Position numbers and translations under genes: made by a program. 64,000 nucleotides of DNA from the IMG/VR virus record IMGVR_UViG_3300045988_179268, positions 224,001-288,000 of that record. One strand, written 5' to 3'. The stretch comes from a virus. The notes under the pieces were generated by a model. The model saw nothing but the letters and a program-made list of their open reading frames with translations, was not told the origin of the DNA and did not search any database. Positions 96 through 53,134 of this stretch are shown piece after piece. Position 1 is the stretch's first letter; every line of letters begins with the position of its first letter.

Positions 96-1277
96 ATGGA
101 AGCCACCGAAAACCAATTCCCTAAAACTGGCGATGTCATCTACAACTACCGCAAGCGAGATAAGCCTACTAATAACGGCTTTAACCTATATGACGATATT
201 CAAGTAATCTACGTCGAATCCGCTGACCCGGAAGGTCAAACAATCACCTACTTCGAGGAAGGTAGGTACTCTAACGAGTTTAGGACAGAAAAGCTTAACC
301 TCTCCACCTACGACGGTTTTAGCTTCTCCAACCGTCACTCTTACTACACTGAGCATTATGTCGTTGCAGGTCACGGCGTGGACGACTACGCTAAGTACAC
401 CAATCTTGCCACAAATGCAGGACTGATTACAGGCAGTAACTACTGGAATAACTCAGTGTATGGCTCTAGCGACTACATTGATGAGTATCGACCTGAGTTC
501 AACATTCTTGATAAGAGTCAGTATCAGTTCTGTATCTCGAACTTCTCGAAGAAAATCTCTTGGGCTCGCGAATCACTGAAGGCTCTCAAAGATACCTATG
601 AGAGTGAGTTCGTACCTTTCGTTAAGTCTCTTAGCTATGACCTGCCCAGGGTTTCAGAGCGTAAAGATTATCGAGCCAGGACATTTAATAAAATAGAGGT
701 TGGCGACGTGCTAGTACTGACAATTCGTGACTTGGGCAACCGACCAGACATGATTGTGCAGGTCAAGGCATTCAACAAGGATTCAGCATCCATTGAGACA
801 GTAGGTGGACTGGAAGGCGTATTGACGGAGTTAAAGCGTGGAGACAACGACTTCAAGGTTGAAATTGATGGTCTTACACTATATGCTGTGAGTGCCGAGG
901 TTACTTCGGCGGCTTCCGTTGAAGATGCTGTATATAACGAGGCAATTAAGAAGCAGTACCAAGCAGACCTGGAGAGTGCAAGCGACTTCTTTAAGAAGCT
1001 GTTTAATTCCAGCGATGCCGACCCGAATGTTAGTGCCCTCTATAGGACAGCCGTAAATCATGACAATAGCCGTTATGAGTGGTGGAGATTTGGACGTGGT
1101 GGAGACGGCGTTGGGCTGTTTAATTACGGCAAGGGGTATGTTCCTGTTGGTCAGCATATACTGCGCCACACCACACGAATGATTGCCAGTATCGAAGATA
1201 CTGTTACAACCATCATTAATGGTACTGAGCAGATGATTGACAAGATGAACGCCGTGTATGGGTACACCTCGGCGTGA
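96..1277 (+). CDS. hypothetical protein
   Basis: Track ORF 45..1277. I moved the start to ATG 96, which follows a GGAGGAG RBS. The stop is TGA (1275-1277), then TAT AGC TGA and an open in-frame continuation. Confidence 0.75.
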   Translation: MEATENQFPKTGDVIYNYRKRDKPTNNGFNLYDDIQVIYVESADPEGQTITYFEEGRYSNEFRTEKLNLSTYDGFSFSNRHSYYTEHYVVAGHGVDDYAKYTNLATNAGLITGSNYWNNSVYGSSDYIDEYRPEFNILDKSQYQFCISNFSKKISWARESLKALKDTYESEFVPFVKSLSYDLPRVSERKDYRARTFNKIEVGDVLVLTIRDLGNRPDMIVQVKAFNKDSASIETVGGLEGVLTELKRGDNDFKVEIDGLTLYAVSAEVTSAASVEDAVYNEAIKKQYQADLESASDFFKKLFNSSDADPNVSALYRTAVNHDNSRYEWWRFGRGGDGVGLFNYGKGYVPVGQHILRHTTRMIASIEDTVTTIINGTEQMIDKMNAVYGYTSA

Positions 1278-1340
1278 TATAGCTGAGTGTTTTTGTGGCG
1301 GGCAACCCCCTTTCTCGCGGTGGAGTTGCCCGCCACAACT

Positions 1341-2603
1341 ATGCACACAACATATGTGGTACAGTATAATTGTATCCATGTTGGAGAAATATTCAGAGAA
1401 ATTAGAGGCAGGAAATTGACCGAACACACCAAGTTCCATGCAGTAGAAGCCCACGAAGTTAAGCCAGGCGACATCCTCATTGAAGCACCTAGTGAAACAT
1501 GGTTGGGGAAGCATTTTCAAGCCGCCCACCTCGTCACCAAGATTACAGACGCTAACGAAATAGTGAGCATCAGCACCCATCAGCCACACGAACCCCTCAA
1601 CATTACAGAAACCCCTATAGCCATCATTAAGGAAGGCAGTGCCAACGGGAGCTGGGAACAGTACAGCAAAGCAGTTGGAGCAGTCGTTGAATATAGTGAA
1701 GAGTTATTCAATATTACTAGTAAGCTTGACTCACTCAAGAACCTCTTCCATGACATCAAATCATGGCGCGAGAAGTTCACCCCCAGTATCCCGCTAACCT
1801 ATGGTGAATACGAATCGCTGGTTGCAAGTCACACCCAGCTTCTAGACACCATAGAAACTGCCATCGAGTATGCCGACAAGCACTTCATTCCCACCATACA
1901 GCACCTATACTCAACTGAGCTTGACGGCATTTCAGAGCGCCAGCAGAAACAGTATACTCCGCCGGTAACTGTTGTGGGCGGAGGTATGACCAAGAACGAT
2001 AAGGTGGCTAAAGCTTTCGAGTCCCTAAAACATGGTAGCTACCTTGCCATCAAACTAGATAACACAGATGGAGAAACAGACTACTGTATTGCAAAATTTG
2101 AAGGCGTTAAGGGCAACATCCGAAAGTTTGCACACCTAAAGTTCCACAATGGAGAAATCGACGGCGACATAGCTTTTGGGCGCAAAAACCTCTACTCCTC
2201 ACGACGAACTCTACATGTAGACGGGCTAGAGAAGAAGGTGGGGGTAATTTTCCTTACTCCAACCAAATCCTACAAATCTGCGTTGGAATACGTGGAAGTC
2301 ATGGATGTACAAGTGAGACTTATGCATTCATTTGATAGCGCGATGCTCTTTTGCCCCAACTCTCTCTGGAAGGACTCTCTGAAAGCCGTAACGCACAACA
2401 AGGCACTCATGGAGCGAAAAGCACACGAAGATAACACTTATGATGGGTGGACATCTGACAGGTTCCTGTGCGCTATAACTGAGACATACGGTAAGCTAAC
2501 TGAAATTGCGGGCAAGCTACGAGCAGTAACACCCCTGCTAGAACAAATGAACCACGCAAACCACAAGTTGCAACCCGAACAGCGACAGCCAAGCATTGAG
2601 TAA
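1341..2603 (+). CDS. hypothetical protein
   Basis: Track ORF 1287..2603, in the same frame as the upstream ORF. The start is uncertain: ATG 1341, or TTG 1416 after GAGGCAGG and downstream of a promoter-like ATGTGGTACAGT at 1354-1365. Confidence 0.65.
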   Translation: MHTTYVVQYNCIHVGEIFREIRGRKLTEHTKFHAVEAHEVKPGDILIEAPSETWLGKHFQAAHLVTKITDANEIVSISTHQPHEPLNITETPIAIIKEGSANGSWEQYSKAVGAVVEYSEELFNITSKLDSLKNLFHDIKSWREKFTPSIPLTYGEYESLVASHTQLLDTIETAIEYADKHFIPTIQHLYSTELDGISERQQKQYTPPVTVVGGGMTKNDKVAKAFESLKHGSYLAIKLDNTDGETDYCIAKFEGVKGNIRKFAHLKFHNGEIDGDIAFGRKNLYSSRRTLHVDGLEKKVGVIFLTPTKSYKSALEYVEVMDVQVRLMHSFDSAMLFCPNSLWKDSLKAVTHNKALMERKAHEDNTYDGWTSDRFLCAITETYGKLTEIAGKLRAVTPLLEQMNHANHKLQPEQRQPSIE

Positions 2604-2772
2604 GGGGCAATGCTGTTGCATCCATCTACTCAGCCATTACCAGAGCGAGGGGTGGGTGTTTGTGAGGTTGCGTGTGTAATACTTCCTTTGCTTGGCGCGA
2701 AGCATTAAATGGGAAATGTGCTGAGGCGAAAGAATAAACTTCTTTTGCCTCAGCACATTTAAAATCGCATCA

Positions 2773-2786
2773 ATATGTGGTACACT
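2773..2786 (+). promoter_or_regulatory. extended -10 promoter motif ATATGTGGTACACT
   Basis: Consensus copy upstream of the RNA ligase gene, preceded by hairpin 2714-2760. Confidence 0.6.
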
Positions 2787-2858
2787 GTATATAGATTGTT
2801 AGTAAGTGGGTGAAACTCACGCCCCCACAACCAAACCAACAAAAAAGGAAGTTCAAGA

Positions 2859-4061
2859 ATGAACCTACTAGAGCATTACCGCGACAACTACAGCCATGTT
2901 GTTCGCCTCAATAAGCATGAGGCAACCGGGCTAACCTGCGTCAAGTACAAGCCTGACGTTTATGACTTTACTGACCCTTACGTCCGAATGGCGCGAGGTC
3001 TAGTCCTCAACGACCAGGGCGACATTATCCTGCGAGGATTCAATAAGTTCTTCAACTGGAAGCAGTACGACCTCAAGACCACGGTAGACCGTAAGTTCAA
3101 GGAAGAGTTTACCCACATGGGGTCATTTGCGCCTGACGAGAAGGTCACCTTCTATGAGAAGCTAGACGGAACCTGCATCATTGTTGGACTCTACGAAGGC
3201 GAATACCTGTTTGCTACTCCCGGCGCTGTTGAAACCCCTAAGTATCAGGAGCCGGTACATCGACTACTAAACGAAGCTCCGCAAGTTAAGGCATGGCTGG
3301 AAGAAAACCCGGACATGTGCCTCATCTTCGAGTACACTTCCCCCTACAACATCATTAACGTGCTGTACGAGGAGGAGAACCTTACTCTCATTGGTCTGGC
3401 AAGTAAGACTTACGGCGACCGTAGCCCCCTGGAAATGCTCGAAGTAGCCGAGAAGCTAAACCTCCCCGCACCGAAGGTCTACCACATGACCATTCCCGAA
3501 GTGTCACAGGTTCAGGAAGAAACCAAGGGCATTGAAGGATTCATTGCTGTAAACCAGTATGGGCACCTCTTGAAGTTCAAGACCGAGGACTGGTTCATGC
3601 ACAGCAACGACTTCCTCCACCCCTATGTGAACAAGTCGTCACGTCCCGCCGTCCGCCGAATCATCCAGGCAGTCGCAAACGGAACGATTGACGACATGCT
3701 GGCACGCCAGGCAACCCTATCCGAGAAGGATATTGAGGATAAGATTTCCGTTGTTGTTGAATGTGTTGAAGAGCTTCTAGCTGAGGGGCAGGAGAAGTAC
3801 CTCCAGCTCAAGCAGGCGCTTGACTCTGCGCCGACCGAGGAAGCTAAGTATGAGGCTCGTGTAAAGTTCTTCGACCCGAAGAGCAAGAGTGCAACGAACC
3901 CTCAGATGGCACTAGTGACCACTCACCTGCGAGGCAAGACGTTCTCCCAGCTTATCGAAGAACACCCGGCACGCCTCAAGTCCTTCACCCAGGACATCAT
4001 GGAGCGACTTATCGCCCGAGGGGTCAGCGTGACCATCGAAAAGCCGCGCCCCAAGCAGTAA
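2859..4061 (+). CDS. ATP-dependent RNA ligase, T4 Rnl1-like
   Basis: Has motif I KLDG (YEKLDGTCII), ARGLVL and FNKFFNW like T4 Rnl1 CRGIMF/MEKFFNL, motif IV EGFIAV and motif V LLKFKTEDW. RBS is AAAGGAAG and a promoter motif sits at 2773-2786. Confidence 0.8.
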   Translation: MNLLEHYRDNYSHVVRLNKHEATGLTCVKYKPDVYDFTDPYVRMARGLVLNDQGDIILRGFNKFFNWKQYDLKTTVDRKFKEEFTHMGSFAPDEKVTFYEKLDGTCIIVGLYEGEYLFATPGAVETPKYQEPVHRLLNEAPQVKAWLEENPDMCLIFEYTSPYNIINVLYEEENLTLIGLASKTYGDRSPLEMLEVAEKLNLPAPKVYHMTIPEVSQVQEETKGIEGFIAVNQYGHLLKFKTEDWFMHSNDFLHPYVNKSSRPAVRRIIQAVANGTIDDMLARQATLSEKDIEDKISVVVECVEELLAEGQEKYLQLKQALDSAPTEEAKYEARVKFFDPKSKSATNPQMALVTTHLRGKTFSQLIEEHPARLKSFTQDIMERLIARGVSVTIEKPRPKQ

Positions 4062-4241
4062 GTGACGCAATAGGGGTAGATAGGAAAGCCTGAAACATAC
4101 GATGAGTGGTTGGAACGGATGGAAGACCTTACCGGCGTAAACCCCGCCACATACCTACCTCTCTAATTTAGGTGCCCATCAAGTACCTCATTCGATATGG
4201 GAGATGTGATAAACTGACCTTGTAACGAGTGAGGTACTTTT

Positions 4242-5444
4242 ATGCCCACTGAAATTTCTGATTCCTACTTGGAGGGAATAATGGCTCTAGCTGACAGCAT
4301 TGGCATGGTTAAAGGAAGCAGGCGTAATGTGAGGGCTTCCTTACCTAAGCGCGTCTCTGACGCTGTGATTGCTAATACTTACGGTATTGACTCCCAGATT
4401 GCGATGTGTGCGGTTGCTACCCGTAAGGCGGAGACTCACATCATGGAGTTGGGCGGACGTTACGCCACGGTAGAAGAATACAACGAATGGCTTGAAACCT
4501 ACCTTAAGCTGGGTGGGACAATTGATGTCTACCATGATTACCCGATGCCACTGAACGCCTTTTTCTTCTTCGCTAACCCATCATGGCTAGACCTTCATAC
4601 AGCATTTGAGTATTCGTTACCTATTAATGTGCTTGCAAGCCCTAACTACAACCTTAAAAGCCACCCCTTCAAAGGCTCCAATAATATTGATTGCATGGTC
4701 AGCTTCTTCGGGTGGGCTCCCACTAGTGAAGGTGACCTCTCCCCGGCGATTAGCGGCAACAACACAGTGCATGTTTGGAGTGACACGGTGGATAGGGTTC
4801 TCATGCGTGAGGATGCCGAAGATGCCGCTCTGTCTGCCCGGCTGAGGACTATGTATGATGAGTGGCATGACGACTCTACCCTTGGGAATATTGATGGGCA
4901 GATGCGTGCCCATCACATGTCAGGGGCAGGCTCGCCGCTTGTGCAGGCGTTGCGTGAATCTGTTGGTACGGTATTTAGTGAACCTGCAACGAGTAGCGAT
5001 TATGCTGAGTGGTTGCAGGAGTATGTGAACTATCTGGACAGCACGGGTGGCAAGCCAAGTGACTCACAGTATGGGAATCTGGTACATTCTGAACCTTACG
5101 CCACCTTAGCGTATATGAACGGTTTCAATCTTGATGCGAGGGCTTTTGTTCGTGTTTACAAGTTTGCTTTGCCGTTCTCTGTGCTACCGTGGGCATACGA
5201 TACTGAATGCTTCCTCTTATTGGATAAGGGCATTGATGCTGTTGAGTATGCAGACAATATTGCCCGGATGCAGGCAAGGTATGGTTTTGACAACCCTCAC
5301 ATCGTTGTTTTTGGATGGAATGCCGAAGGTGTCCCTGTTGTAATTAACGGTATAGCCCCTATTTATCGTGAGTGTCTTGACGCCCCCTCTAGGGCTATTA
5401 TCATGACTGCTTTCGATAAGGATGTTTGGGCATCCTATAGCTAG
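4242..5444 (+). CDS. hypothetical protein with internal duplication
   Basis: Long ORF with RBS GAGG. Two related halves are visible (EEYNEWLETYLKLGGT vs SDYAEWLQEYVNYLDSTGG; EYSLPINVL vs KFALPFSVL). Confidence 0.75.
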   Translation: MPTEISDSYLEGIMALADSIGMVKGSRRNVRASLPKRVSDAVIANTYGIDSQIAMCAVATRKAETHIMELGGRYATVEEYNEWLETYLKLGGTIDVYHDYPMPLNAFFFFANPSWLDLHTAFEYSLPINVLASPNYNLKSHPFKGSNNIDCMVSFFGWAPTSEGDLSPAISGNNTVHVWSDTVDRVLMREDAEDAALSARLRTMYDEWHDDSTLGNIDGQMRAHHMSGAGSPLVQALRESVGTVFSEPATSSDYAEWLQEYVNYLDSTGGKPSDSQYGNLVHSEPYATLAYMNGFNLDARAFVRVYKFALPFSVLPWAYDTECFLLLDKGIDAVEYADNIARMQARYGFDNPHIVVFGWNAEGVPVVINGIAPIYRECLDAPSRAIIMTAFDKDVWASYS

Positions 5445-5592
5445 AGTGAAGTTTCCTCGTTTTTAGAAAGTTCCCCTTTGCGTGACTGCACATAAGGGGA
5501 ACTTTCTTCTTTGTATGGTGGGCATAGCCGGAGCCGCATGTCTTAGATTTGTTTCAATACGCAAATCTGTGGTACGCTTATCCTGTAAGGCA

Positions 5593-6087
5593 ATGACGAA
5601 AGGATTCGCAATGCAGAAAAAGAACCAACCCCTCAGTGGCGATGAAATCTTTTCATACGTGGCGTTGGCGTTTATGCTAACTCTCATGGTAGTAGGCATC
5701 GGGTATGCCGCATGGATTAACCGACCCACCCCTACCATTGACACTAACCACAACTTTCAGGTTACTCGCATCGAAACCCGGAACTTCAAAGAAGGTGAAT
5801 GGCATCGCTACAGCCACTTCGGAGATTGCCGAAACATCGACGGAAGCACTTACACCTGCATCGTAGATGACGACTACTGGGTAGGTGACACCTTTGAATG
5901 GCGCGAAGCTGACAAGTACGAAAACGCCGACGAAGGCTGGGTTAAGGTTGAAAGCGACGTAAAACCAACCGACACCGAATATGCATACCGCAAGGTATCC
6001 GACTGGGACGTTGTGCGAGATGCCCCCGGTGACAGCCGCAACGGTCAGGTAGTCAAGCATGTACACCTTGACGAGTTCTACCTCTAA
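5593..6087 (+). CDS. small membrane protein
   Basis: Track ORF 5482..6087. I moved the start downstream of the promoter-like ATCTGTGGTACGCT (5565-5578) to ATG 5593 (alternative ATG 5611 after AAAGGA). One hydrophobic helix, FSYVALAFMLTLMVVGIGYAAWI. Confidence 0.65.
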   Translation: MTKGFAMQKKNQPLSGDEIFSYVALAFMLTLMVVGIGYAAWINRPTPTIDTNHNFQVTRIETRNFKEGEWHRYSHFGDCRNIDGSTYTCIVDDDYWVGDTFEWREADKYENADEGWVKVESDVKPTDTEYAYRKVSDWDVVRDAPGDSRNGQVVKHVHLDEFYL

Positions 6088-6229
6088 AGCGCCCAAATAA
6101 GCGGCGGACTATGTGTTAATCCGCCGCTTATAGTAATATTTGGAATATGCAACGAACGTTCCTCGAAGAAGAACCTTCTTGCACAACAGAAACACCCATA
6201 ACCAGTAACAAGAAAGGGATAACTACAAC

Positions 6230-7384
6230 ATGCCGTCCAAGGAACTTCCTGTAAAGGTAGGCAAGCTTAAAGTCTACGTTCATCTCAAAGTAAATGACCG
6301 CAAGGTGCAAGACTCCATGCTGGAGTACTACAACGCATACATTAAAGTATGCAACCTAGCCAGCAAAGTCGCATACACCCTCAACACGGTAAGCGTGAAC
6401 CGAATCCACGCCCGCGTAAAGAGCGACGCGCGATTCTACGAAGAACAGCACCCTGGAGTACTAGACCGCGCCATTGACGCAGTAACCAAAGACTACGCAA
6501 ATCACGTGGCAGGCGTGAATAAATTCCCCGAAGCACGCACATACAGCGTCCACGACATCCCTGTATGTCAGGACACTGATTACGACTTCATTCCGCTGGG
6601 CAATAATCGACATGGCGTGGAACTCTACCTTGCTAACCGTAGTAGCGGATTCCCTATCACCGTACAGTTCTTGGCGGAATGGCTAAACCTACCCAATGGT
6701 CACGCATACTCCACAACCGCCTCTACCGCCGAACTGTCGTTCGACCACAAGCTAGGTTGGCTCCTTAAGTACGACATGTACACTGTACAGAATACCGTAG
6801 TGGGCATTGACCTGGGCACACGTTTCCTTGCCGTCACCTACGACGGTAAGGAAACTAAGTTCTATCGTGGCGGTGACACCCCCCTCCGGCATGAGATGGC
6901 GACGTATAGCCGCCGCCGCCTAAGTCTCAAGGAGAAGGGTACTCGTAGCGCCCGTAAGCGACTCAAAGCCCTCTCAGACGACTGGCATAAGCATCTGGAA
7001 GCAAATATTAAGAAGACTGTCAAGGAAATTCTTAAGGGTGCTGAGCCTCATACTGTGTTCGCTCTAGAAGATATTGCCGCATCTCCAGAATTGCGAGAGC
7101 GATTCGCCAAAGAAGACGTGGGTAAGCTACCGACCGTCATCTTTGACATGTTCATCCGAACCCTCCGAGATGAGGCGCAGAAACGTGGACATATTTTTAT
7201 TACCGTTTCTAAGGCAAAAACTAGCACAAGGTGCCCCGCATGTGGTATGATTATTAAAAGCAACAGGAAGCAGGGCAAACACATCTACGGATGCTCCTGT
7301 GGTTTCAGGTCTAACGACGACCGTGTAGCCGCAATTAATATCCGTGAACGTGGCATTGTTCGGCTAACTGAACGCCTAGCATAA
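6230..7384 (+). CDS. tnpB: TnpB-like RNA-guided RuvC nuclease (IS200/IS605 OrfB family)
   Basis: RuvC-I VVGIDLG, RuvC-II VFALEDI, zinc finger CPACG..GCSCG, RuvC-III NDDRVAAINI. Size (~384 aa) is typical of TnpB. No adjacent tnpA. Confidence 0.85.
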   Translation: MPSKELPVKVGKLKVYVHLKVNDRKVQDSMLEYYNAYIKVCNLASKVAYTLNTVSVNRIHARVKSDARFYEEQHPGVLDRAIDAVTKDYANHVAGVNKFPEARTYSVHDIPVCQDTDYDFIPLGNNRHGVELYLANRSSGFPITVQFLAEWLNLPNGHAYSTTASTAELSFDHKLGWLLKYDMYTVQNTVVGIDLGTRFLAVTYDGKETKFYRGGDTPLRHEMATYSRRRLSLKEKGTRSARKRLKALSDDWHKHLEANIKKTVKEILKGAEPHTVFALEDIAASPELRERFAKEDVGKLPTVIFDMFIRTLRDEAQKRGHIFITVSKAKTSTRCPACGMIIKSNRKQGKHIYGCSCGFRSNDDRVAAINIRERGIVRLTERLA

Positions 7385-7480
7385 GCGCCAGGGAACATGT
7401 TTCCTGACGTGGGGTGAGATGCTACCACCCCACCAGGCTTAGGGTAGTAGGTTAAGCGGTAAAACGCTTAACCTCAGCAA
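6230..7480 (+). mobile_element. possible TnpB-only IS200/IS605-like remnant
   Basis: The tnpB-like gene is followed immediately by three strong hairpins (7389-7406, 7408-7432, 7449-7474), as expected for a right-end/omega-RNA region. I did not identify the element ends. Confidence 0.3.
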
Positions 7481-8410
7481 ACACCCTTTAGGGCACATAA
7501 AACATAAGTGCATGATGATAGGTGACGGTAGTCAAGGGTCGAACCGCTTTTATCTGGTAGAGAGGCAAAACTCTCCAGAGCCACTTCTCGGAAGGGGGAT
7601 GCGGCGCGGGAGTCTTGAACGCTTAACTCTATCGGATTGTGTTTATGTTTTCGCCAGCCTGACGAAGTTCCACTCACGCGGGAACCTGATGACTCATGCT
7701 TGCTAGTATGACGAGGGTACCTGCGGCGCGTGTTTGTACACATAAGCGTATAGTAGAAGGGACAAGCTGACCCGCAACTAGCGCCACCGTTAGCTTCATT
7801 GATAGTGCAATAGGCTAATAGCGGCAAAAGGACGCAGGTCAATACAGCAGAATAGCGACATTCGCACAATGCATGTGCAGGGAACACACTTTATAACTTC
7901 CACATGTTCACAACCTGCCCTGTATTTAACGGATGTTAGAGACACCCCAACGGACGTTTGGGTAAGTGGACGGTAAAGCTGAATCAAAGCCCCAATAAGG
8001 CATGACGAAGCATTATCACACCAGAAGCGTGTCACTGTGCAACTATGTTGCCCGCCAGTAAATGAGCAAAGCTGGCATTATCGGGCACCGCCAATAGTTG
8101 CCGGCTGTTTGCCCAGCCACACAGTATTTCATGGGCACACTGGATGTGACAAAAATACCAGCCACTTACAAATGCTCAAACCAACGTCACCACCAGAAGG
8201 TTCAATATAACGAGCCTCACAGTGGTTTGAGGAACGACGACCTACCCCTCTTGCAGGAGGGTGAAGTCGGGCCAACAGTTGAACGCAACACAACGCAGGA
8301 AACTGATTCGTTACTTATCGTTGCGGGTGTCTCTCTTTTTATGTGCAAAAATAGCCTCTCACCTATGGGGGAAACCTCAAACAATTACATCGCAAAGACT
8401 CGCACGAATT
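7385..8410. ncRNA. candidate large non-coding region (omega-RNA plus unknown structured RNA?)
   Basis: About 1.1 kb with TAA/TAG in all plus-strand frames. Track ORFs here lack an RBS and look non-protein-like. It begins with three consecutive perfect hairpins. Confidence 0.3.
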
Positions 8411-17327: not shown

Positions 17328-17398
17328 GCCCATCTAGCTTAATGTAAAGCAACAGTCTTCAAAACTGTGAGATGTCGGTTCAAGTCCGGCGGTGGGTG
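17328..17398 (+). tRNA. tRNA with anticodon TCA (UGA-decoding; suppressor or reassignment tRNA)
   Basis: Acceptor GCCCATC/GGTGGGT (two G-U pairs), D arm GCTT-AATGTA-AAGC (short loop with no GG), anticodon arm ACAGT-CTTCAAA-ACTGT, variable GAGAT, T arm GTCGG-TTCAAGT-CCGGC. 71 nt. Confidence 0.7.
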
Positions 17399-17447
17399 CT
17401 TGCAAGTAACAAAACCGGAGTTCTAGCCGAAAGTGGCGTAACTTGCG

Positions 17448-39627: not shown

Positions 39628-39924
39628 ATGTCACGTTTCGGTTATTCTGCCCTTAAGAAGAACTCTCGCGTCTCTGGCGCATCGGCGGCAACCCGCCGTA
39701 ATTCCATCCGCCGCACATCTTCATCTGGTAGCTCTTCTAGTAGCTACTACTCAGGTGGCAATGACTGGTACGACGATAGCTACTCTAGTTATGATGATTC
39801 TTCTTCCAGCTACAGCTCTTCGAGTAGTTCATCTAGTGATTACTGCTCTTCCTCTGACTCATCTTGGAGTTCCAGCTCATCTTACGATTCTGGCTCCTCT
39901 GACTGTGGCTCTTGGAGTGACTAG
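39628..39924 (+). CDS. Ser/Asp/Tyr-rich low-complexity acidic protein
   Basis: ATG 7 nt after AAGGAG. About two thirds of the sequence is S, D, Y or W. An overlapping frame (39620..39928) is also open but lacks this RBS spacing. Confidence 0.6.
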   Translation: MSRFGYSALKKNSRVSGASAATRRNSIRRTSSSGSSSSSYYSGGNDWYDDSYSSYDDSSSSYSSSSSSSSDYCSSSDSSWSSSSSYDSGSSDCGSWSD

Positions 39925-39943
39925 CTAGACAACATATAATAGT

Positions 39944-39996
39944 TCGCCTGCAAACATGCTCTCTTTAGTTATACGGCATGTTTGCAGGCGAGTTTC
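39944..39996 (+). terminator. hairpin terminator
   Basis: TCGCCTGCAAACATGC..GCATGTTTGCAGGCGA followed by GTTTC. Confidence 0.65.
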
Positions 39997-40109
39997 ATCT
40001 CTAGAAAGGTTAGCTGACTGTCGCCAACTTTATTGATATTGCACCCATGCTTTAATATTGGTAATATTAGATACATTAGCAGTATTTTACGGATACCAGA
40101 TAGGAGGGC

Positions 40110-41711
40110 GTGTTGGCAAAAAATCAGACGTATAAAGCTTTCACTGTGCGCCCATCCTACATCCTAGACTTGAATGGCGAACTACTGGATAGCGCGCCTA
40201 CCATGTCTCGGCTTGTCTCTGAGGTTCGGGGCATCTCGACGTATGCAACCTATACGGTTCGTAATGATACTCAGCTTGCGGCTGACCTGGCTCAGGTTAC
40301 TGTTTCTCAGCCTGCGGTTGCTGGTCGTCGGGCTGGCGTTACTATTCCCCCTGAACTGGTAGTGAAGGGCAAGGTGTACAAAAACAAGGCGGGTAAGCTT
40401 GTAGAGGAAAAGGTTTTTGGTAGGTCGCGTAAGGAGTTGCTGTTTAGGCATCGCGTGGTCACTGAGCATCGTTCCTGGAAGGAGCGCGTTAAAGCCGCTA
40501 AGGGCACTTCTTCTAAGTATGTTTCGCAGGGCTGGAAGCGCACGGTGGATGCATCTGCCCCGTCGTATGGTGACGGTGATTTCATCAACTTAGGGGCTGT
40601 TGATAAGCAGTACGCGGTCATCGAGAACAACCCGGTTGTGGATGGTGAGATTGTTCTCAGGATGGTCATTCAGGGTCAGTGGTATCGACTAATTTTCACC
40701 TTCGACAACAAGCGGTTCCCTGAGGGAAAAGTCACTCTGCCTGTGGTAAAAGTAGAAAACAATCAGCCTGTTTTCATTTTCACCGTCGTGACCGATAATC
40801 CTATTGTCCAGTTTTCCGGCGACTACACTATCGGCGTAGACGTGGGTATCAACGATTACGCTACTGTCGTGGTTCGCAACACCAAGACTGGATGTATAGT
40901 CAAGGAAACCACCCTCTCACAGCGAGTCCACTCGCTCTGGAATAGTGTTCGTGCGTCTGAGAAGCAGGTAAAACAGCTCAACAAGAAAGCGGATAAGCTT
41001 CTTTATGACCGTCAGGCTCATATGTGTGCGTTTGATGAGGCGCAGTTGCACCGTGAAGCCGCATCTCGCAAGAAAAGGGAGCTGGCGATTCTTGCCGCAC
41101 AGGAAATCGCCTACTTGTCGCATCAGTACGACAACGCTGTTGTGGCTGTGGAAGACCTTGGTTGGGTTAGCAATACCATGCAGAACGGACGCTGGAATCG
41201 CGGCGCGTTCACCCAGTGGCTCAACCACTACGTCACTCAGAATGGCGGCTGGGTCGTTGCCGTAAACTCTGCAAACACGTCACAGTTGTGTCATATTTGC
41301 AATGAAAAAGTGACGCACCCTACTCATAGGGTTTCCCTCTGTCCTAAACATGGCGAGATGGATAGGGATGTTAATGCCGCCGCGAATATTGCCGCCCACG
41401 CCGCACCCAAGGTGGGGAAGGCGCGCAAGACTCGCGCGAAAAACCGCAAACTACAGGGCAAGGCACCGCTTAAAACCCCTGTCATCAGGGAAACCCTAAA
41501 GTATCCTGGGCGGGACAGGACTAAGAACTGCCCTACCCCAAAGAGAAAGAAACGCACTTCTAAGGGGGTGAATCTTCCCATTAGCCCCGCTAGAGTCGTT
41601 GTGACTACCGTACTAGCGGACTGGGATGCGTTCGGCATCTTGGAGACCGATATGGCGGCTATCAATCGCGGTAACGTAACTTACAAATGTAGGCTATGTA
41701 ACCTAAATTGA
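40110..41711 (+). CDS. large TnpB/Cas12-like RuvC nuclease
   Basis: RuvC-I TIGVDVGIND, RuvC-II VVAVEDLG, zinc finger CHICN..CPKHG, RuvC-III DRDVNAAANIA, and a Lys/Arg-rich C-terminal tail. The stop is TGA, followed by an open in-frame ORF. Confidence 0.8.
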   Translation: MLAKNQTYKAFTVRPSYILDLNGELLDSAPTMSRLVSEVRGISTYATYTVRNDTQLAADLAQVTVSQPAVAGRRAGVTIPPELVVKGKVYKNKAGKLVEEKVFGRSRKELLFRHRVVTEHRSWKERVKAAKGTSSKYVSQGWKRTVDASAPSYGDGDFINLGAVDKQYAVIENNPVVDGEIVLRMVIQGQWYRLIFTFDNKRFPEGKVTLPVVKVENNQPVFIFTVVTDNPIVQFSGDYTIGVDVGINDYATVVVRNTKTGCIVKETTLSQRVHSLWNSVRASEKQVKQLNKKADKLLYDRQAHMCAFDEAQLHREAASRKKRELAILAAQEIAYLSHQYDNAVVAVEDLGWVSNTMQNGRWNRGAFTQWLNHYVTQNGGWVVAVNSANTSQLCHICNEKVTHPTHRVSLCPKHGEMDRDVNAAANIAAHAAPKVGKARKTRAKNRKLQGKAPLKTPVIRETLKYPGRDRTKNCPTPKRKKRTSKGVNLPISPARVVVTTVLADWDAFGILETDMAAINRGNVTYKCRLCNLN

Positions 41712-41729
41712 TACGGTGCAGATTTCTGT

Positions 41730-41960
41730 ATGGATAACAACAATAATTTCCCGGTGTACGAGTCGGATAAGTACCCACGCCCAGCAGTAACCCCGGAAGA
41801 AGCTCTCGCCGTTGTGGAAGCTGGTATGGGTCTTGCGGGATACACATGCACCGACCCATACCTCAAGGAGCTACTGAGGCAGAGCGCGTATGGCGAAATT
41901 ACATTTGAGGAATACAGTGAGGCGTGTACTAAGTACATCCTTGGTGATGACCGCGCCTAA
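41730..41960 (+). CDS. small protein, possible VbhA-like antitoxin fold
   Basis: LAVVEAGMGLAGYTCTDPYLKELLRQSAYGEITFEEY resembles the VbhA pattern ..S.RLEG.ep.p......vvGEls.ed, but it lacks the inhibitory Glu. It is in the same frame as 40110..41711, with no stop after the TGA. Confidence 0.5.
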   Translation: MDNNNNFPVYESDKYPRPAVTPEEALAVVEAGMGLAGYTCTDPYLKELLRQSAYGEITFEEYSEACTKYILGDDRA

Positions 41961-42018
41961 ATAATTCCGCATATAGACGCTATTAGCGAGAGGGCATTTA
42001 CATATCTACCGCCAAAAA

Positions 42019-42054
42019 GCCTGGTGTGAGTGATAGAACTCACGCCAGGCTTTT
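42019..42054 (+). terminator. rho-independent terminator
   Basis: GCCTGGTGTGAG..CTCACGCCAGGC followed by TTTT. Confidence 0.8.
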
Positions 42055-42120
42055 AACATGGAATTTCACAACCATCTAAAAATGTGGTACAGTATAAGTA
42101 TTGGAAAGGAGGGTAACGGA

Positions 42121-43887
42121 TTGCCCACTCAGATTATTATGGCACCCCCGCCGGGTGCTCCCGCAGTAAACAGCATTACAGGTCAGCCCATCAATGGCGA
42201 AAAGCCTGAAAAGCCGCCTATTAAGGTGCGCAAGCTAACCCCTAAAGAGCTTGAGAGGTATATTCACTATATCCAGGAGCTTGTTAAGATTACCCCATAC
42301 TTCGCACCTATCCTTCGACAGTTGCGCCCCGCAATTATCAACACGGACAAGGCGTATATTGATAAGCATTGGCGAATCGCGCTCCCTGAGGGCTCCCTAG
42401 ATGACTATCTGGATTTTGAGACGTTTACGAAGATAATGCGTGAAGCGTTGCGTATCGTTATTATTCAGCGAGAACGCGCCGCCCGCGCAGGATACCGTGA
42501 CGACGAAACCGCCCGCGCATCGTTTGACCTGGAAATTAACCAGCGCCTTAGTGGTCTTGGTGGACGAATCAAGCTCGACCCTGAGAATGACTTTGTTCCT
42601 GCCGACTACGACCTCCCCCCGTTCGGTGTCGCGGAGGAGTTCTACGACACCATTCTCCAGTATTTCGAAGAGGAGGAACCCCCTTCGGGTGGCAACTCTT
42701 CTAATTCTAATAATGGTCAGCAGGGCGGGAAGTCTACCAACGGTAGCGGCAACGGAACCCCTACCTCTTCTAACGGGAATAAGGGCTCTGGTACCGCTTC
42801 TAAGGGCGGTTCAAGCTCCAACCAAGAAGAAGGTGGCGACAACCAGGAAGACCCCAACCAGGAAAACACTGGCGATAACGATACTAGCGATTCTGGTAAT
42901 GGCAACGGTGACGTTGAAGATAGCCAGGGTGATGAGAGTCAGGATTCTGGCAACGGGGCACCGCCTGACACTTCCGACGAGGAAGGTGGTGACGGCGGCG
43001 GCGGTAGTGACACAGGAGAAGATGGTGAAGAAGACGGAAGCGGTGGGATTACCGACGAGTTCGTGACCAACCACAACCTCCAGGCACTAATGGACGGCGC
43101 AGGCATCCAGGCGGCAAGCGAAATGGTCAAGCGTGAATCTCGTAAGGACATGCTCGCCAAGGTTCGCCAGGAACAGGCTAAAAAGAGCCGAGGCAAGGGT
43201 CACAACGAAAGCATCCTTGATTGGGTTACGAAGACCGAAGCAGGAAACACTGTTCACTGGACTGCATTGCTCAAGCGAACCCTGGCGACGGCTTCTAGCC
43301 AGCGAACCGCCGGTGAGACTTACCGAACATTCCGCAAGTACAACCGTCTAAACGTCATCATGCCGGATAACCGAGTCATGTTCCCTACCTACTATGACAC
43401 GAAGCCTCATGTTTACGTGGGTGTGGACACGTCAGGCTCCATGCTGAACGAAGTAGACTCCGGTCGCGCATTGGGTAATATCGACCGCATCTTGAATGAT
43501 TTTAGGAATCGCGCTGAAATGCGAATCTGCGCCATTGACACAAAAATGGGCGAGTTCCAGAATGTGAGGGACATCTCCGAAATTAATTTCGTTGGTGGTG
43601 GTGGCACTGAAATGGCTCCCTTCGTCAAGGCTCTCAATGAGTATGACAAGGGTACTGACAGCAAGCACCCGCCCGCCGCGCTAGGAATCCTTATTACGGA
43701 CGGATACATCGACTGGAAGGCTGTAGCTAGGGAACTTGGTCAGCGCCACAATTACAAGCTGGCTATCGTCCTCACCTCAGACCACAACAGAAACTCTGTG
43801 GTGGAGATGAACAACTACTTTTCCCACCTGCCGCTTAACGCACGACCTACCATCATTAAGATTGAGCGCCCGCGAAGCAACTTCTAA
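42121..43887 (+). CDS. vWA-domain protein with acidic low-complexity linker (CobT-like architecture)
   Basis: TTG 42121, 8 nt after AAGGAGGG and downstream of promoter 42080-42093. G/S/N/D/E-rich middle region. C-terminal MIDAS VGVDTSGSM and GGGGTEM. Confidence 0.75.
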   Translation: MPTQIIMAPPPGAPAVNSITGQPINGEKPEKPPIKVRKLTPKELERYIHYIQELVKITPYFAPILRQLRPAIINTDKAYIDKHWRIALPEGSLDDYLDFETFTKIMREALRIVIIQRERAARAGYRDDETARASFDLEINQRLSGLGGRIKLDPENDFVPADYDLPPFGVAEEFYDTILQYFEEEEPPSGGNSSNSNNGQQGGKSTNGSGNGTPTSSNGNKGSGTASKGGSSSNQEEGGDNQEDPNQENTGDNDTSDSGNGNGDVEDSQGDESQDSGNGAPPDTSDEEGGDGGGGSDTGEDGEEDGSGGITDEFVTNHNLQALMDGAGIQAASEMVKRESRKDMLAKVRQEQAKKSRGKGHNESILDWVTKTEAGNTVHWTALLKRTLATASSQRTAGETYRTFRKYNRLNVIMPDNRVMFPTYYDTKPHVYVGVDTSGSMLNEVDSGRALGNIDRILNDFRNRAEMRICAIDTKMGEFQNVRDISEINFVGGGGTEMAPFVKALNEYDKGTDSKHPPAALGILITDGYIDWKAVARELGQRHNYKLAIVLTSDHNRNSVVEMNNYFSHLPLNARPTIIKIERPRSNF

Positions 43888-43939
43888 CGCATCAATCCCC
43901 AATACCACTTAACCCACCTACAGATAGGAAATAATCACT

Positions 43940-45490
43940 ATGTCTGCAACCTCTAACAAGGCGACTGGAAACATCTCTGTCGCACCCCTGCCCCTCAAGA
44001 AGGCAATGAATTTCGTGAAGACCCTTGCCTTCCCGAAGAGCAACACTGACGGCTCCCTGCGCCCCGGCTTGTCCGTAGCGCTGATTGGCGAACCCGGTAT
44101 CGGTAAGACTGCCGCTATTCACGCTCTCAAGGATGAAATGAACTATGAAGGCGTTGAGGTACTTATCGGTTCTCAGCTGTCCCCTGAAATGATTGGTGGC
44201 ATCCCATCGGTGGGTGAAACCACTGTCACTAATGCTGACGGTGTTGTAGAACACATCCCTTCTACCGCATACCTAAACGAGCCGTTCCAGGTTCGTATCC
44301 GCGAGAAGAAGAAGGTTATTCTACTGCTGGATGAGTACAGCAACTCTGGTCCTAACGTCCAGGCGGCTATGCTGTACATCTTTAATGAGCGCCGCTTCCC
44401 GGATGGCACTGAAATTCCCGCAGAAACCGTTATCCTTTTGGCGACGAACTCTGCTAACTCTTCGGTGAACCCGAACCCCATTGCTCCGCCTACTCAGAAC
44501 CGTGTCGCATGGCTTCCTGTGACGCAGGATAAGGACGGCTGGGTTGAAGGCGCTATTGATAACTGGGGTAAGCCTATGCTTGAGCATGAGCCTGCTATCC
44601 GTAAGATGGTAGTCAAGTACATGTCTGACCGTGACGGCGCACTGCATGAGGACGACCGCGATTCCCGCCTTGACCGCTTTGCGTCGGATATGGATAACAA
44701 CTGCCGCGATGCCGCTACTTACGCATGGCGTTCACCTCGAAGCTGGGATAACCTCATTCACGCACTGGCTTTGGCACCTCATGACGACAAGGACACGTTT
44801 ATTGATTATGCGGAGACTGTTGCGACTGCCATTATTGGTTTTGACGGTTACAATGCGTTCAGGGGCGCACTTAGCCGCTACGCAGAGTCGCTGAATAGTG
44901 ATAATTCTGTCGCCATGATGACCATTGAAGAGATGTTCGCAGACCCCGGCAAGCTGTCTAAGGGCGTTAAGGAGAACGACCAGAACCTTGCATCTGATGT
45001 TGCTGAGCGTCTGGCTGATTACATTCAGGATAAGATTGACGGCGTGCCTAAGTCTGGCGCTTCCAAGAAGCAGAAGGATGCCCTGGGTGAGGATATTGCG
45101 AAGGCATGTAGCTTCATCTACACCCTTGTGGATGCTTCGTCTCCGTTGAACAATGTTGCATTCCGCGCACCTCTGCATGTGACGCTTACCAAGATTATTG
45201 ATGCACTCGGTAAGCGAATGGACATCTTGGGTATTGACCCGGCTAAGCCTGGTCTTCACGTCCCGCACTCCGCACTCTCTGACATGTACTCTAAGTACCT
45301 GCTGAATAACCTGCCGCTGGCTTCTATGGGCCTTCCTGCTGACACGAATGTGAATCCTCAGAGTGCCAAGGAGGAGAAGGAGCTTAAGAAGAAGCTAGAA
45401 AAGGTGATGTGGCACCCGCTGTCTATCCCTACCACTTTGATGGCTCAGGCATACTCTAGCCTGCATGATGTAGATAACAATAAGCGTTAA
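43940..45490 (+). CDS. AAA+ ATPase, MoxR/CobS-like
   Basis: Walker A GEPGIGKT, Walker B ILLLDEY, AWRSPRSWDNLI. Paralog of 30665..32125. Confidence 0.8.
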   Translation: MSATSNKATGNISVAPLPLKKAMNFVKTLAFPKSNTDGSLRPGLSVALIGEPGIGKTAAIHALKDEMNYEGVEVLIGSQLSPEMIGGIPSVGETTVTNADGVVEHIPSTAYLNEPFQVRIREKKKVILLLDEYSNSGPNVQAAMLYIFNERRFPDGTEIPAETVILLATNSANSSVNPNPIAPPTQNRVAWLPVTQDKDGWVEGAIDNWGKPMLEHEPAIRKMVVKYMSDRDGALHEDDRDSRLDRFASDMDNNCRDAATYAWRSPRSWDNLIHALALAPHDDKDTFIDYAETVATAIIGFDGYNAFRGALSRYAESLNSDNSVAMMTIEEMFADPGKLSKGVKENDQNLASDVAERLADYIQDKIDGVPKSGASKKQKDALGEDIAKACSFIYTLVDASSPLNNVAFRAPLHVTLTKIIDALGKRMDILGIDPAKPGLHVPHSALSDMYSKYLLNNLPLASMGLPADTNVNPQSAKEEKELKKKLEKVMWHPLSIPTTLMAQAYSSLHDVDNNKR

Positions 45491-51532: not shown

Positions 51533-53134
51533 GTGACCACCCAGCACACCACTAAGGCACTGCTGAAATACAGCCCCGGTTGGACACCCATCACGAACAC
51601 AACCAGCCTCCCCATCTGGCAACATGGTGGTTCTAACGTCATCCCTAAGAAGAAGCAACGAACCATCCAGGAACCTGATGGTGTTTGGCGTATCCCTCTT
51701 AGTGAAACCTTAAAAGACGGACGCGGAACCCTGCACACCCCTTTCACGAACGTTTGGAGCGAAGTAGACAGAAAGGTTCGCCCTGAGAATTGGCAGTACC
51801 TATCCGTTCTCTACAGTACTGCCGGAAAATACAATAAGGATAGTGGCGCAATGGAGCCAAATCCTGACGCACCCCTACCGACCGTAATTCGTGACCCTAA
51901 CGTCAATATTCCCGCCGTTTTTAGTGATGCAGAACAGGTTCTCTACAAGTATGATAATGTGTATTCACTGCCCGGATGTGTTGAAAACCTTCTAGGTGGC
52001 AACTATATCTACGGTCGAGCTACCGTAAACCCATATGAGGTTGATATGCGCAATGCAGGTTGTCGAATCTCGGGGGATGCCACTATTGAAAGCGGTGTAA
52101 TTACTAAAAACTCTATGCCACATGGAGTGTTTGACGGTCTGCCGCTAACGTCATATTCCAGCAACTCGAAGCTGTTCATTAAAGGTAAAACTGTCGTTCG
52201 CAACAGTGCCATCTACCGTGACTGCGCATTGACAGGAAATACTCTTATTGAAGACAGTTTGCTAGAGAGCGTCCACGTGACCAGTGATAATATCGACCTA
52301 CATCTCAGCGATGTAAAAATTCTGGGTGCTGATTTTGCAAGTGAAGGCAATATCGGCATCTCTGGAGCTAAGGTTAAGGGTCTTCATGCCAGGCGAGACG
52401 CAAACCTCAGCCTGTCTGGTCAGGCAAACATTGAACATGTCTGGCTTGAAGGCGGAAATGCTCACATTGAAGGAAATATTGGCTTCATGCTTAGCGCTTT
52501 TGGTGGTTCCTTCAAGCTTCGAGCAACAGCCCCCAAGGATGGTCGTGGTAGTGACTACCTTTTTGACCGCGTGAACGGATACTACATCCTGCCTCTCATG
52601 TTGTCTCAGCGCGACTTTGAATCCTGTATCCACTGGGATGATGGCTGGACTTCGCCAGAGACAGTTTTCTCTATTAATGTGCTGGGGACGCTTAACCTGA
52701 GCACTCAATTGCTACGGAAGCCGCATAATATTGAGCAGTTCTGTTGTCTGCCGGACACTCACTTGAACGACCAGTGCCGTTGCGCATTGTACTACCCGCT
52801 GTTTCTGATGTGTCACCCGATGGCTGTTACATACTTCCTTAAGACGGGCGGCTTGGATAATTCGGTTCCTGTACAGTATCAGAGCTTGTCTATTGCCCAG
52901 CTTGAAAGCAGTATGGATAACCTTATTGTTGAGGTGGGAGAGAATCTGGATATGCGCCAGTCTGTCATTCATTTTATTGGACTCATGAACGGATATGTGC
53001 CCGATATTGGAAGTGTGCAAGAGATGAAAGATACTATTTGTAAAATTTACGGTGTAGACGTTGCTGATATTGTGCGGGACAAGTGTGATTATCGACTGCC
53101 ATTGGGTCGTAACACGCGGTTTTTCCGCCGTTAG
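51533..53134 (+). CDS. beta-helix + CHCC-motif family protein (paralog 7)
   Basis: GTG after AAGGAAG and promoter at 51480-51493. Long repeat region (LTGNTLIEDS.., SGQANIEHVWLEGGNAHIEGNIGF), then QFCCLPDTHLNDQCRCALYYPLFLM. Confidence 0.8.
   Translation: MTTQHTTKALLKYSPGWTPITNTTSLPIWQHGGSNVIPKKKQRTIQEPDGVWRIPLSETLKDGRGTLHTPFTNVWSEVDRKVRPENWQYLSVLYSTAGKYNKDSGAMEPNPDAPLPTVIRDPNVNIPAVFSDAEQVLYKYDNVYSLPGCVENLLGGNYIYGRATVNPYEVDMRNAGCRISGDATIESGVITKNSMPHGVFDGLPLTSYSSNSKLFIKGKTVVRNSAIYRDCALTGNTLIEDSLLESVHVTSDNIDLHLSDVKILGADFASEGNIGISGAKVKGLHARRDANLSLSGQANIEHVWLEGGNAHIEGNIGFMLSAFGGSFKLRATAPKDGRGSDYLFDRVNGYYILPLMLSQRDFESCIHWDDGWTSPETVFSINVLGTLNLSTQLLRKPHNIEQFCCLPDTHLNDQCRCALYYPLFLMCHPMAVTYFLKTGGLDNSVPVQYQSLSIAQLESSMDNLIVEVGENLDMRQSVIHFIGLMNGYVPDIGSVQEMKDTICKIYGVDVADIVRDKCDYRLPLGRNTRFFRR

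Follow-up and report, generated by a model that had tools for sequence, protein, structure and literature searches.

A probable TnpB-only mobile element with a predicted guide RNA overlapping its gene, inserted beside a resident small gene in a jumbo-phage-like contig

When a nuclease gene is separated by a single TGA stop codon and a few sense codons from a small open reading frame (ORF) in the same frame, it may be asked whether the two encode a fusion protein, a functional pair or mere neighbours. We have examined such a locus in a window of 64,000 nt from the IMG/VR virus record IMGVR_UViG_3300045988_179268 (positions 224,001-288,000); coordinates are those of the window unless another contig is named. 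On the plus strand, ORF 40110..41711 runs from a GTG start over 533 aa to a TGA stop (41709-41711), after which six sense codons (TAC GGT GCA GAT TTC TGT) lead in frame to the ATG at 41730 of a 76-aa ORF closed by TAA at 41958-41960. All of this stands where an initial annotation of the sequence had placed it, together with the proposals that the large protein is an unusually big TnpB/Cas12-like nuclease, that the small one is a VbhA-like antitoxin and that read-through could join them. Our analysis leads to a different picture, in which 40011-41714 is very probably a non-autonomous, insertion sequence (IS)-like element carrying tnpB alone, with a predicted guide RNA that runs over the 3′ end of this gene, and the small ORF belongs to the phage genome itself.

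We identify the 533-aa protein as a TnpB, divergent yet intact, and not as a Cas12. The complete RuvC triad, the zinc finger and the basic C-terminus announced by the initial annotation were all seen, with motifs GVDVG (D244), AVEDL (E348), DRDVNAAANI (D420) and CHIC...CPKH aligning with the catalytic and zinc-finger residues of ISDra2 TnpB. Membership of the TnpB/Cas12 superfamily with an intact catalytic site, also claimed before, is backed by this alignment, by Pfam PF07282 (Cas12f1-like_TNB; 3.6e-13, 49.9 bits against a cut-off of 26.3), by NCBIfam guided_TnpB (4.4e-18, 65.7 bits, under its cut-off of 100) and by Foldseek, where the top 50 matches of the AlphaFold model were all Cas12, TnpB or Fanzor (best E=1.7e-10; template modelling (TM) scores 0.2-0.4) and the leading matches of the RuvC core were Cas12f and TnpB at E 1e-10 to 1e-8. 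PHROG phrog_506 "transposase" was matched at 2e-23 and Pfam OrfB_IS605 weakly, while a PDB sequence search returned the ISDra2 TnpB entries as the only solved relatives (E~1e-3). The protein shares with the ISDra2 type (IS1341 group of IS200/IS605; PDB 8bf8/8h1j) the D-E-D triad and the placing of the E ~46 residues before CxxC...CxxH, yet it is only ~13-15% identical to solved TnpB and Cas12f proteins and ~125 aa longer than ISDra2 TnpB. It is not oversized for a TnpB, as had been thought, since its 532 aa fall within the range of 350-550 aa given in the cited passage of PMC12607003 (citing Nety 2023). This length is counted from TTG 40113, probably the true start, because other copies show GCG-TTG-GCT or ATG-GCT there and the nearest homolog has 532 aa. 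In a metagenomic protein collection 2,756 relatives were found, the best 120 of which are 74-96% identical, 495-537 aa long and located on contigs up to 412 kb. An exact look-up of the window protein gave no record, and neither megablast of the region nor tblastn of the nuclease found a match among GenBank phages. Paralogy with the other 533-aa ORF of the window (51533-53134) was rejected, as the two show no similarity and their equal length is therefore a coincidence.

The limits of the element were drawn from comparison of its copies. A scan of IMG/VR viral contigs gave 65 element loci, including 7 diverged ones on the 253-kb IMGVR_UViG_3300006259_000192, 5 on 3300045988_179839 and 4 on 3300045988_183278. 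The window copy, ~1,704 bp long, opens with TAGCTGACTGTCGCC and closes with TTGATAC, the left boundary being uncertain by ~1 nt. Its left end has a start motif conserved across copies (TA-GMY-GAC-WGT-YG), an interior TTATTGATAT (40031-40040) similar to the right terminus, a putative ribosome-binding site GGAGGG and a 7-bp inverted repeat with arms at 40053-40059 and 40063-40069; among copies, homology starts 59-107 nt before the start codon. At the other side, the ORF terminates within the conserved ...CCTTATTTGATAC in nearly all copies; similarity between copies ends there, and the downstream sequence and ORFs differ at every copy. The right end holds mostly RNA-type stems. Inspection of the element ends revealed no terminal inverted repeats, which speaks against a transposon of the DDE type. 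Turnover of the elements is indicated by solo or decayed right ends (L012 786-1035 and L038 552-851), which retain the 3′ part of the omega-RNA up to TTGATAC but no intact tnpB, and by shortened tnpB ORFs in a few copies (L036, L049). No second copy was detected within the window by tblastn or by the RNA core motif.

The site before insertion is preserved in relatives. The element occupies a 57-nt spacer between jumbo-phage genes of 98 and 76 aa, and in at least seven related assemblies (L071-L075, L076, L077) the 98-aa gene is followed at once by the small gene, without an intervening TnpB. Gene order around this empty site is kept (175/199, 44, 394/400, 149/154, 116/119, 98, site, 74-90, 587-631 (DUF2201) and 516 (AAA_5) aa) and continues with genes of 305/328 and 415 aa where the relatives' contigs extend, whereas L076 spans only the end of the 98-aa gene, the site and the genes of 90, 631 and 516 aa. 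The empty allele reads ...CTCTGGAAAGG-AT-ACAGATTTCTGCATGGATAAC (also written AGGAT/ACAGATTTCTG), and the filled allele of the window reads ...CTCTAGAAAGGT, then the element from TAGCTGAC to TTGATAC, then GGTGCAGATTTCTGTATGGATAAC. Because the empty-site relatives keep the small gene without TnpB, we consider it a resident phage gene beside which the nuclease was inserted. It adjoins the element at this insertion site only and follows it at no other.

The initial annotation had seen no obvious room for an omega-RNA downstream of the nuclease; a strongly covarying scaffold lies instead over the last ~150-230 nt of the ORF itself. Across the last ~250 nt of 51 copies, nucleotide conservation, beginning near 41483, is far above that expected from 65-80% protein identity. 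RNAalifold on these copies gave 42 base pairs in ten helices, spanning 41563-41711, with compensatory changes on both sides in 25 of the 42; the terminal stem (41662-41671 / 41702-41711) includes the TGA stop. Standard pairs filled 94.7% of cells, against 33-50% when the partners were slid by 1-3 columns, and none of 500 shuffles reached the observed pairing on any measure. Moreover, variability at codon positions 1/2/3 follows the protein-coding pattern in the catalytic core (0.125/0.073/0.361) and in residues 441-485 (0.135/0.124/0.356), and it is only in the last 48 codons (0.183/0.174/0.196) that periodicity is lost, as under selection at the RNA level. The conserved RNA is very probably the omega-RNA of this TnpB. 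A search of Rfam with 39900-42100 at E<=1 returned no family, RAGATH-18 included, and only two chance miRNA matches. Characterised TnpB systems have a scaffold that extends over the gene's 3′ end and take the adjacent flank as guide (PMC13565253); by this analogy the guide would begin right after TTGATAC and cover the ATG of the 76-aa ORF, its first two bases (GG, 41715-41716) being also the right copy of the 2-nt repeat that flanks the element.

This repeat is a general property of the family. Of 41 distinct insertions whose left end could be recognised, 25 have the same 2 nt immediately 5′ of the left end and immediately 3′ of TTGATAC (expected 6.6, permutation p<1e-4), and 10 more agree in one of these bases. 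G occupies position -3 in 41/47 and A or T position -4 in 39/47; the base after the right dinucleotide is T in 36/47. Five more pairs of filled and empty alleles at other sites, among the loci retrieved, have the dinucleotide only once when the site is empty. The target is therefore W-G-NN-T, with NN on both sides after insertion.

Such a target sets the element apart from the two usual tnpB-carrying IS families. For IS200/IS605 elements, insertion takes place 3′ of a tetra- or pentanucleotide that is AT-rich and duplicates nothing, and IS607 elements have GG at their ends and target and a serine recombinase (PMC13565253). Here the left flank is W-G-NN, with NN repeated, and not of that AT-rich kind, the element closes with TTGATAC in place of GG, and the flanking dinucleotide varies (TC, TG, GC, GG, CG), so that neither description fits. 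Some likeness to IS607, whose target-adjacent motif (TAM) is G-rich and whose right-end RNA (reRNA) derives from RAGATH-18, exists in the G-rich left flank (the G at -3, NN often being GG, GC or TG), in the dinucleotide at both junctions, which resembles a crossover core, and in the lack of terminal inverted repeats, yet RAGATH-18 is not matched and no serine-recombinase TnpA was found in any of the copies examined. Likewise, no Y1 HUH TnpA of the IS200/IS605 type occurs in the copies, where 59-107 nt separate the left end from tnpB. Indeed, no element copy holds a transposase gene of any kind, although whole phage and host genomes were not scanned for one acting in trans. The likeness to TnpB-only IS elements is broader: a single gene between short non-coding ends, many copies, insertion polymorphism and a structured RNA over the 3′ end of the ORF that ends at the right boundary, so that the flank becomes the guide. 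The locus also resembles the homing endonucleases of the T4 Seg/Mob type, being an intergenic nuclease gene, present or absent between conserved phage genes, for which spread during co-infection by cutting the element-free allele would be expected; here, however, target recognition would be RNA-guided and not performed by the protein, and the family has transposon-like ends and many paralogous copies per genome.

The life cycle of such an element may be sketched by analogy. The tnpB transcript would be processed into an omega-RNA composed of the scaffold (~41563-41714) and a guide of ~16-20 nt of flank from 41715, and the TnpB-omega-RNA complex would cut where the left-flank W-G-NN directly joins the guide flank, that is, the element-free allele, which might be produced by excision or carried by a co-infecting relative. 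Excision might leave a circle with a junction of the form TTGATAC-NN-TAGCTGAC. Recombinational repair from an element-bearing genome could then restore or spread the element, a form of homing, and a competitive gain to the phage against its relatives is compatible with this. Spread to fresh sites would need a transposase that the element does not encode.

Several points weigh against the interpretation as a TnpB-omega-RNA mobile element. The origin of new copies is one, for the copies have no transposase and the 2-nt repeat suits neither IS605 nor IS607. As a candidate TAM, only the W-G at -4/-3 is conserved 5′ of the repeat. The AlphaFold model of the nuclease, built with 30 close homologs, is poor, with a mean predicted local distance difference test (pLDDT) of 54.5 and residues 444-533 disordered. 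The ends of the omega-RNA, the length of its guide and its expression are ones that we infer from other TnpB systems. Finally, the available empty alleles mismatch the predicted guide at positions 2 and 4 (GGTG vs GATA; 41715-41734 vs L076 ~190-210), the guide-matched form being AGG(T/G)-TGCAGATTTCTGTATGG and the natural one AGGAT-ACAGATTTCTG. These positions are TAM-proximal, and mismatches there usually block TnpB; therefore those empty alleles are possibly not cleavable, and could be escape alleles or the product of plain divergence.

The rival explanations of the locus begin with the shared frame. A programmed read-through of the TGA, aided by the phage's own tRNA(UCA), would yield a functional fusion of 615 aa joining the nuclease to the 76-aa domain. 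In fact, the window holds a canonical tRNA with anticodon UCA (Rfam tRNA 60.6 bits), TGA is rare there (the stop of 4/40 ORFs of at least 200 codons), no stop lies between the two ORFs, and the same layout recurs in L001, though at the identical insertion site; with such a tRNA and so few TGA stops, some read-through at any TGA is conceivable. Genome-wide recoding of TGA was rejected, as in-frame TGA codons break up no gene of the window and three genes end with TGA. Yet in ~55 other copies the in-frame extension past the TGA ranges from 0 to 221 codons and the sequences behind it are unrelated, without mutual similarity, while in relatives the 76-aa protein is free-standing with no nuclease upstream. 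The ORF is open to the TGA in 47/60 copies and six more stop at a TAG 10 nt earlier; the conservation of the TGA is owed to its position within the terminal TTGATAC and the last RNA stem and not to recoding. The layout itself has a chance of ~0.25 (1/3 for the frame times ~0.75 for six stop-free codons), and the agreement of frame is, from all that these alignments suggest, accidental. A functional fusion, as the initial annotation had envisaged, is thus extremely improbable. As little credit can be given to a two-gene module, toxin-antitoxin-like or regulating TnpB, with the small protein as a degenerate antitoxin of the VbhA type, even though a toxin-antitoxin-like maintenance of TnpB has been proposed (PMC13565253, section 5.7). 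The 76-aa protein is small and predicted to fold into three helices (pLDDT 68.6), its spacing LAG...DP...GEI resembles the LEG...DP...GEL of VbhA, and the best PDB match of its model is BiaA, a VbhA-family (PF18495) antitoxin (5eu0_B), but this match is non-significant (E=5.3, probability 0.12, TM 0.34/0.45). Alignment by hhalign of the 76-aa family with VbhA gave probabilities of 0.3% and 8% for two alignments, in a register unlike the one first proposed, and of 17 family members scanned with Pfam one distant member had a VbhA match below the cut-off (E=0.009) and 16 had none. The protein itself matched nothing in Pfam, PHROG, NCBIfam or PDB sequences. The inhibitory (S/T)xxxE(G/N) motif is absent, AG(L/M)xLAGH standing at the corresponding place, which bears out the earlier remark that the Fic-inhibiting Glu is missing; the inhibitory Ser/Thr is missing as well. 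No Fic-domain gene lies nearby, the neighbours being tnpB upstream and DUF2201 (VWA-like) and AAA_5 genes downstream. With every search non-significant, identity with VbhA was rejected; the likeness is an unproven resemblance and irrelevant to the nuclease. The supposed pairing of nuclease and antitoxin dissolves for the same reason as the fusion, the small gene being found beside TnpB at a single site and existing without it in relatives.

A third proposal is that the protein is a miniature CRISPR-Cas12, or a domesticated TnpB, employed by the phage against hosts or competitors with a guide encoded elsewhere, and not a selfish element. Its size and fold overlap those of Cas12f, and huge phages carry hypercompact type V systems (PMC12607003). 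The family sits on jumbo-phage-like contigs, and when the omega-RNA core was sought as an exact pattern in 185,579 reference genomes of bacteria and archaea, the one match was a chance one; thus the family appears phage-restricted within the limits of this insensitive test. Nevertheless, the 64-kb window contains no CRISPR-like repeat array, the guide-RNA scaffold is joined to the gene and ends at the boundary of a mobile element, the insertion is polymorphic among relatives, and many diverged copies, decaying copies and solo right ends lie at unrelated sites, so this reading is very unlikely. A further possibility reaches beyond the element itself to a so far undescribed, phage-restricted lineage of TnpB-only elements with its own class of omega-RNA, insertion at W-G-NN-T, movement unlike IS605 or IS607, at least seven diverged copies per jumbo-phage genome, reshuffling of the phage chromosome through recombination between copies and a possible role in RNA-guided homing or exclusion between co-infecting phages. 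The family differs from known TnpB elements also in an omega-RNA outside Rfam and in its occurrence, so far, on jumbo-phage-like contigs only, yet we consider so ambitious a claim rather doubtful. The element is of an ordinary kind, a TnpB-omega-RNA mobile element. The outcome against which the initial annotation had weighed its own proposal, an ordinary IS605/IS607 TnpB with a recognisable omega-RNA and transposon ends beside a small ORF devoid of VbhA similarity, has thus largely been found, the exception being the ends, which differ from those of ordinary IS605 and IS607 elements.

Taking the locus as a mobile TnpB element, the antitoxin-like read-through arrangement is an accident of the landing site, and neither the fusion nor the toxin-antitoxin reading is worth pursuing. 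What has been gained are the ends, the guide-RNA scaffold and the target signature of a TnpB family that is compact, appears to be active and has multiplied in phages of ~300-400 kb. IS elements are usually scarce in phages; therefore a phage-borne multicopy family of RNA-guided nucleases is useful material. It suits the study of RNA-guided homing between co-infecting viruses and of rearrangements driven by TnpB, and offers an additional pair of TnpB and omega-RNA with a predicted TAM that is possibly short and G-containing. The remaining interest lies in the multicopy phage-borne family, its uncatalogued omega-RNA and a target signature outside both usual IS families, whose 2-nt repeat points to a different route of mobilisation.

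Recombination between copies seems to have shaped the locus. In L001 (ERZ773053 NODE_1, 358 kb; 736-7551), two inverted copies flank a ~5-kb gene block whose own orientation is opposite to that in the window and in the relatives with an empty site. Over most of its first ~1.6 kb the window copy agrees with L001 copy A at ~100% identity, but in the last ~70 nt and the flank it follows copy B, with a crossover at ~41447-41650, where the two are 98-100% identical; this is the omega-RNA region. The window copy hence looks like a recombinant of copies A and B. A simple inversion between copies as the origin of the window arrangement was rejected, for the window has the ancestral gene order plus one insertion and the inversion is in L001.

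Table 1. Features at and around the tnpB element (window coordinates)
Feature	Position	Strand	Basis or remark
Hairpin, likely terminator of the 98-aa gene	39946..39989	+	compared with empty sites; marks the original intergenic region entered
Left target flank AGGT, candidate TAM	40007..40010	+	fits the W-G-NN pattern
Whole element, ~1,704 bp, tnpB its sole gene	40011..41714	+	homology limits across ~55 copies
Non-coding left end	40011..40112	+	upstream regions of 53 copies aligned
tnpB coding sequence	40113..41711	+	532 aa if counted from the conserved TTG, 533 aa if from GTG 40110
RuvC D244 codon	40839-40841	+	aligned to ISDra2 TnpB; invariant in 30 homologs
RuvC E348 codon	41151-41153	+	aligned to ISDra2 TnpB; invariant in 30 homologs
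Zinc finger CxxC...CxxH	41289-41351	+	C394, C397, C411, H414; invariant in 30 homologs
RuvC D420 codon	41367-41369	+	aligned to ISDra2 TnpB; invariant in 30 homologs
Basic C-terminal segment, aa ~441-485	41430..41564	+	protein-coding constraint from codon-position variability
Putative omega-RNA (reRNA) scaffold, structured	41563..41714	+	RNAalifold, 51 copies; overlaps the last ~50 tnpB codons
Predicted guide segment GGTGCAGATTTCTGTATGGA	41715..41734	+	analogy with TnpB omega-RNA architecture (PMC13565253) and element boundary
76-aa resident phage gene, outside the element	41730..41960	+	predicted three-helix, uncharacterised family
GC-rich hairpin with T run, first terminator-like structure after tnpB	42018..42054	+	by eye; not listed by a simple scan

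The resident small gene belongs to a family of its own, with the motif AG(L/M)xLAGHx(I/V)TDP...GE(I/L)(T/S)xEE. Close homologs form only five clusters, and the four that were looked up are all syntenic and occur without TnpB; an exhaustive profile search extended the family to 24 relatives, mostly of 62-84 aa, and a scan of viral contigs with the 76-aa protein yielded none. The gene calls of 88-90 aa in relatives are probably over-extended, starting inside the upstream terminator hairpin, the conserved start being the Met of MDNNN/MNNN. In the window, the insertion parts the gene from the purine-rich GGAAAGG of empty alleles, and its translation may therefore need ribosomes terminating 18 nt upstream. 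A ~46-aa core (AGxxLAGHxxTDP...GEIT) also occurs, unlike VbhA/BiaA, as 6-14 tandem modules in the giant proteins P0126 (4,455 aa, 14 stretches), P0129 (2,305 aa), P0130 (1,729 aa) and P0145 (691 aa), and is fused to a helix-turn-helix domain in P0143.

The neighbourhood offers a few further observations. That the window derives from a jumbo phage is suggested by its 27 tRNA genes (16719-37363), by PHROG matches to ATPases and to an RNA ligase / tail-fibre attachment protein, and by relatives on contigs of 290-412 kb, many of them catalogued in IMG/VR. The tRNA(UCA) lies at 17328-17399, an opal suppressor that ARAGORN labels SeC. The 98-aa gene (39628-39924, +), conserved in all relatives, encodes a low-complexity product extremely rich in Ser, Tyr and Asp; the loop of its terminator hairpin is reverse-complemented in the window with respect to L071-L075 (L071 5960-6005), and in L067/L068 (5500-6000) a ~470-nt insert sits inside the same loop, that of L067 giving no Rfam match. 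Downstream of the small gene, 42058-45490 (+) encodes a DUF2201 VWA-like protein of 609 aa with a long acidic Gly/Ser-rich linker and then an AAA_5 (MoxR-like) ATPase of 516 aa, a gene pair conserved in all relatives. In L005 and L016 the element stands directly upstream of a tRNA-like sequence, the right flank beginning AGCCGTTAGCTCAGTGGA. The window also carries a second, unrelated TnpB-type gene at 6230-7384 (+; 384 aa, PF07282 6e-14, phrog_506 1.5e-24), preceded by a 201-aa ORF (5482-6087) that has no Pfam match and hence is no recognisable TnpA, and followed at 7385-7600 by a GC-rich, hairpin-rich stretch that may hold an omega-RNA of its own.

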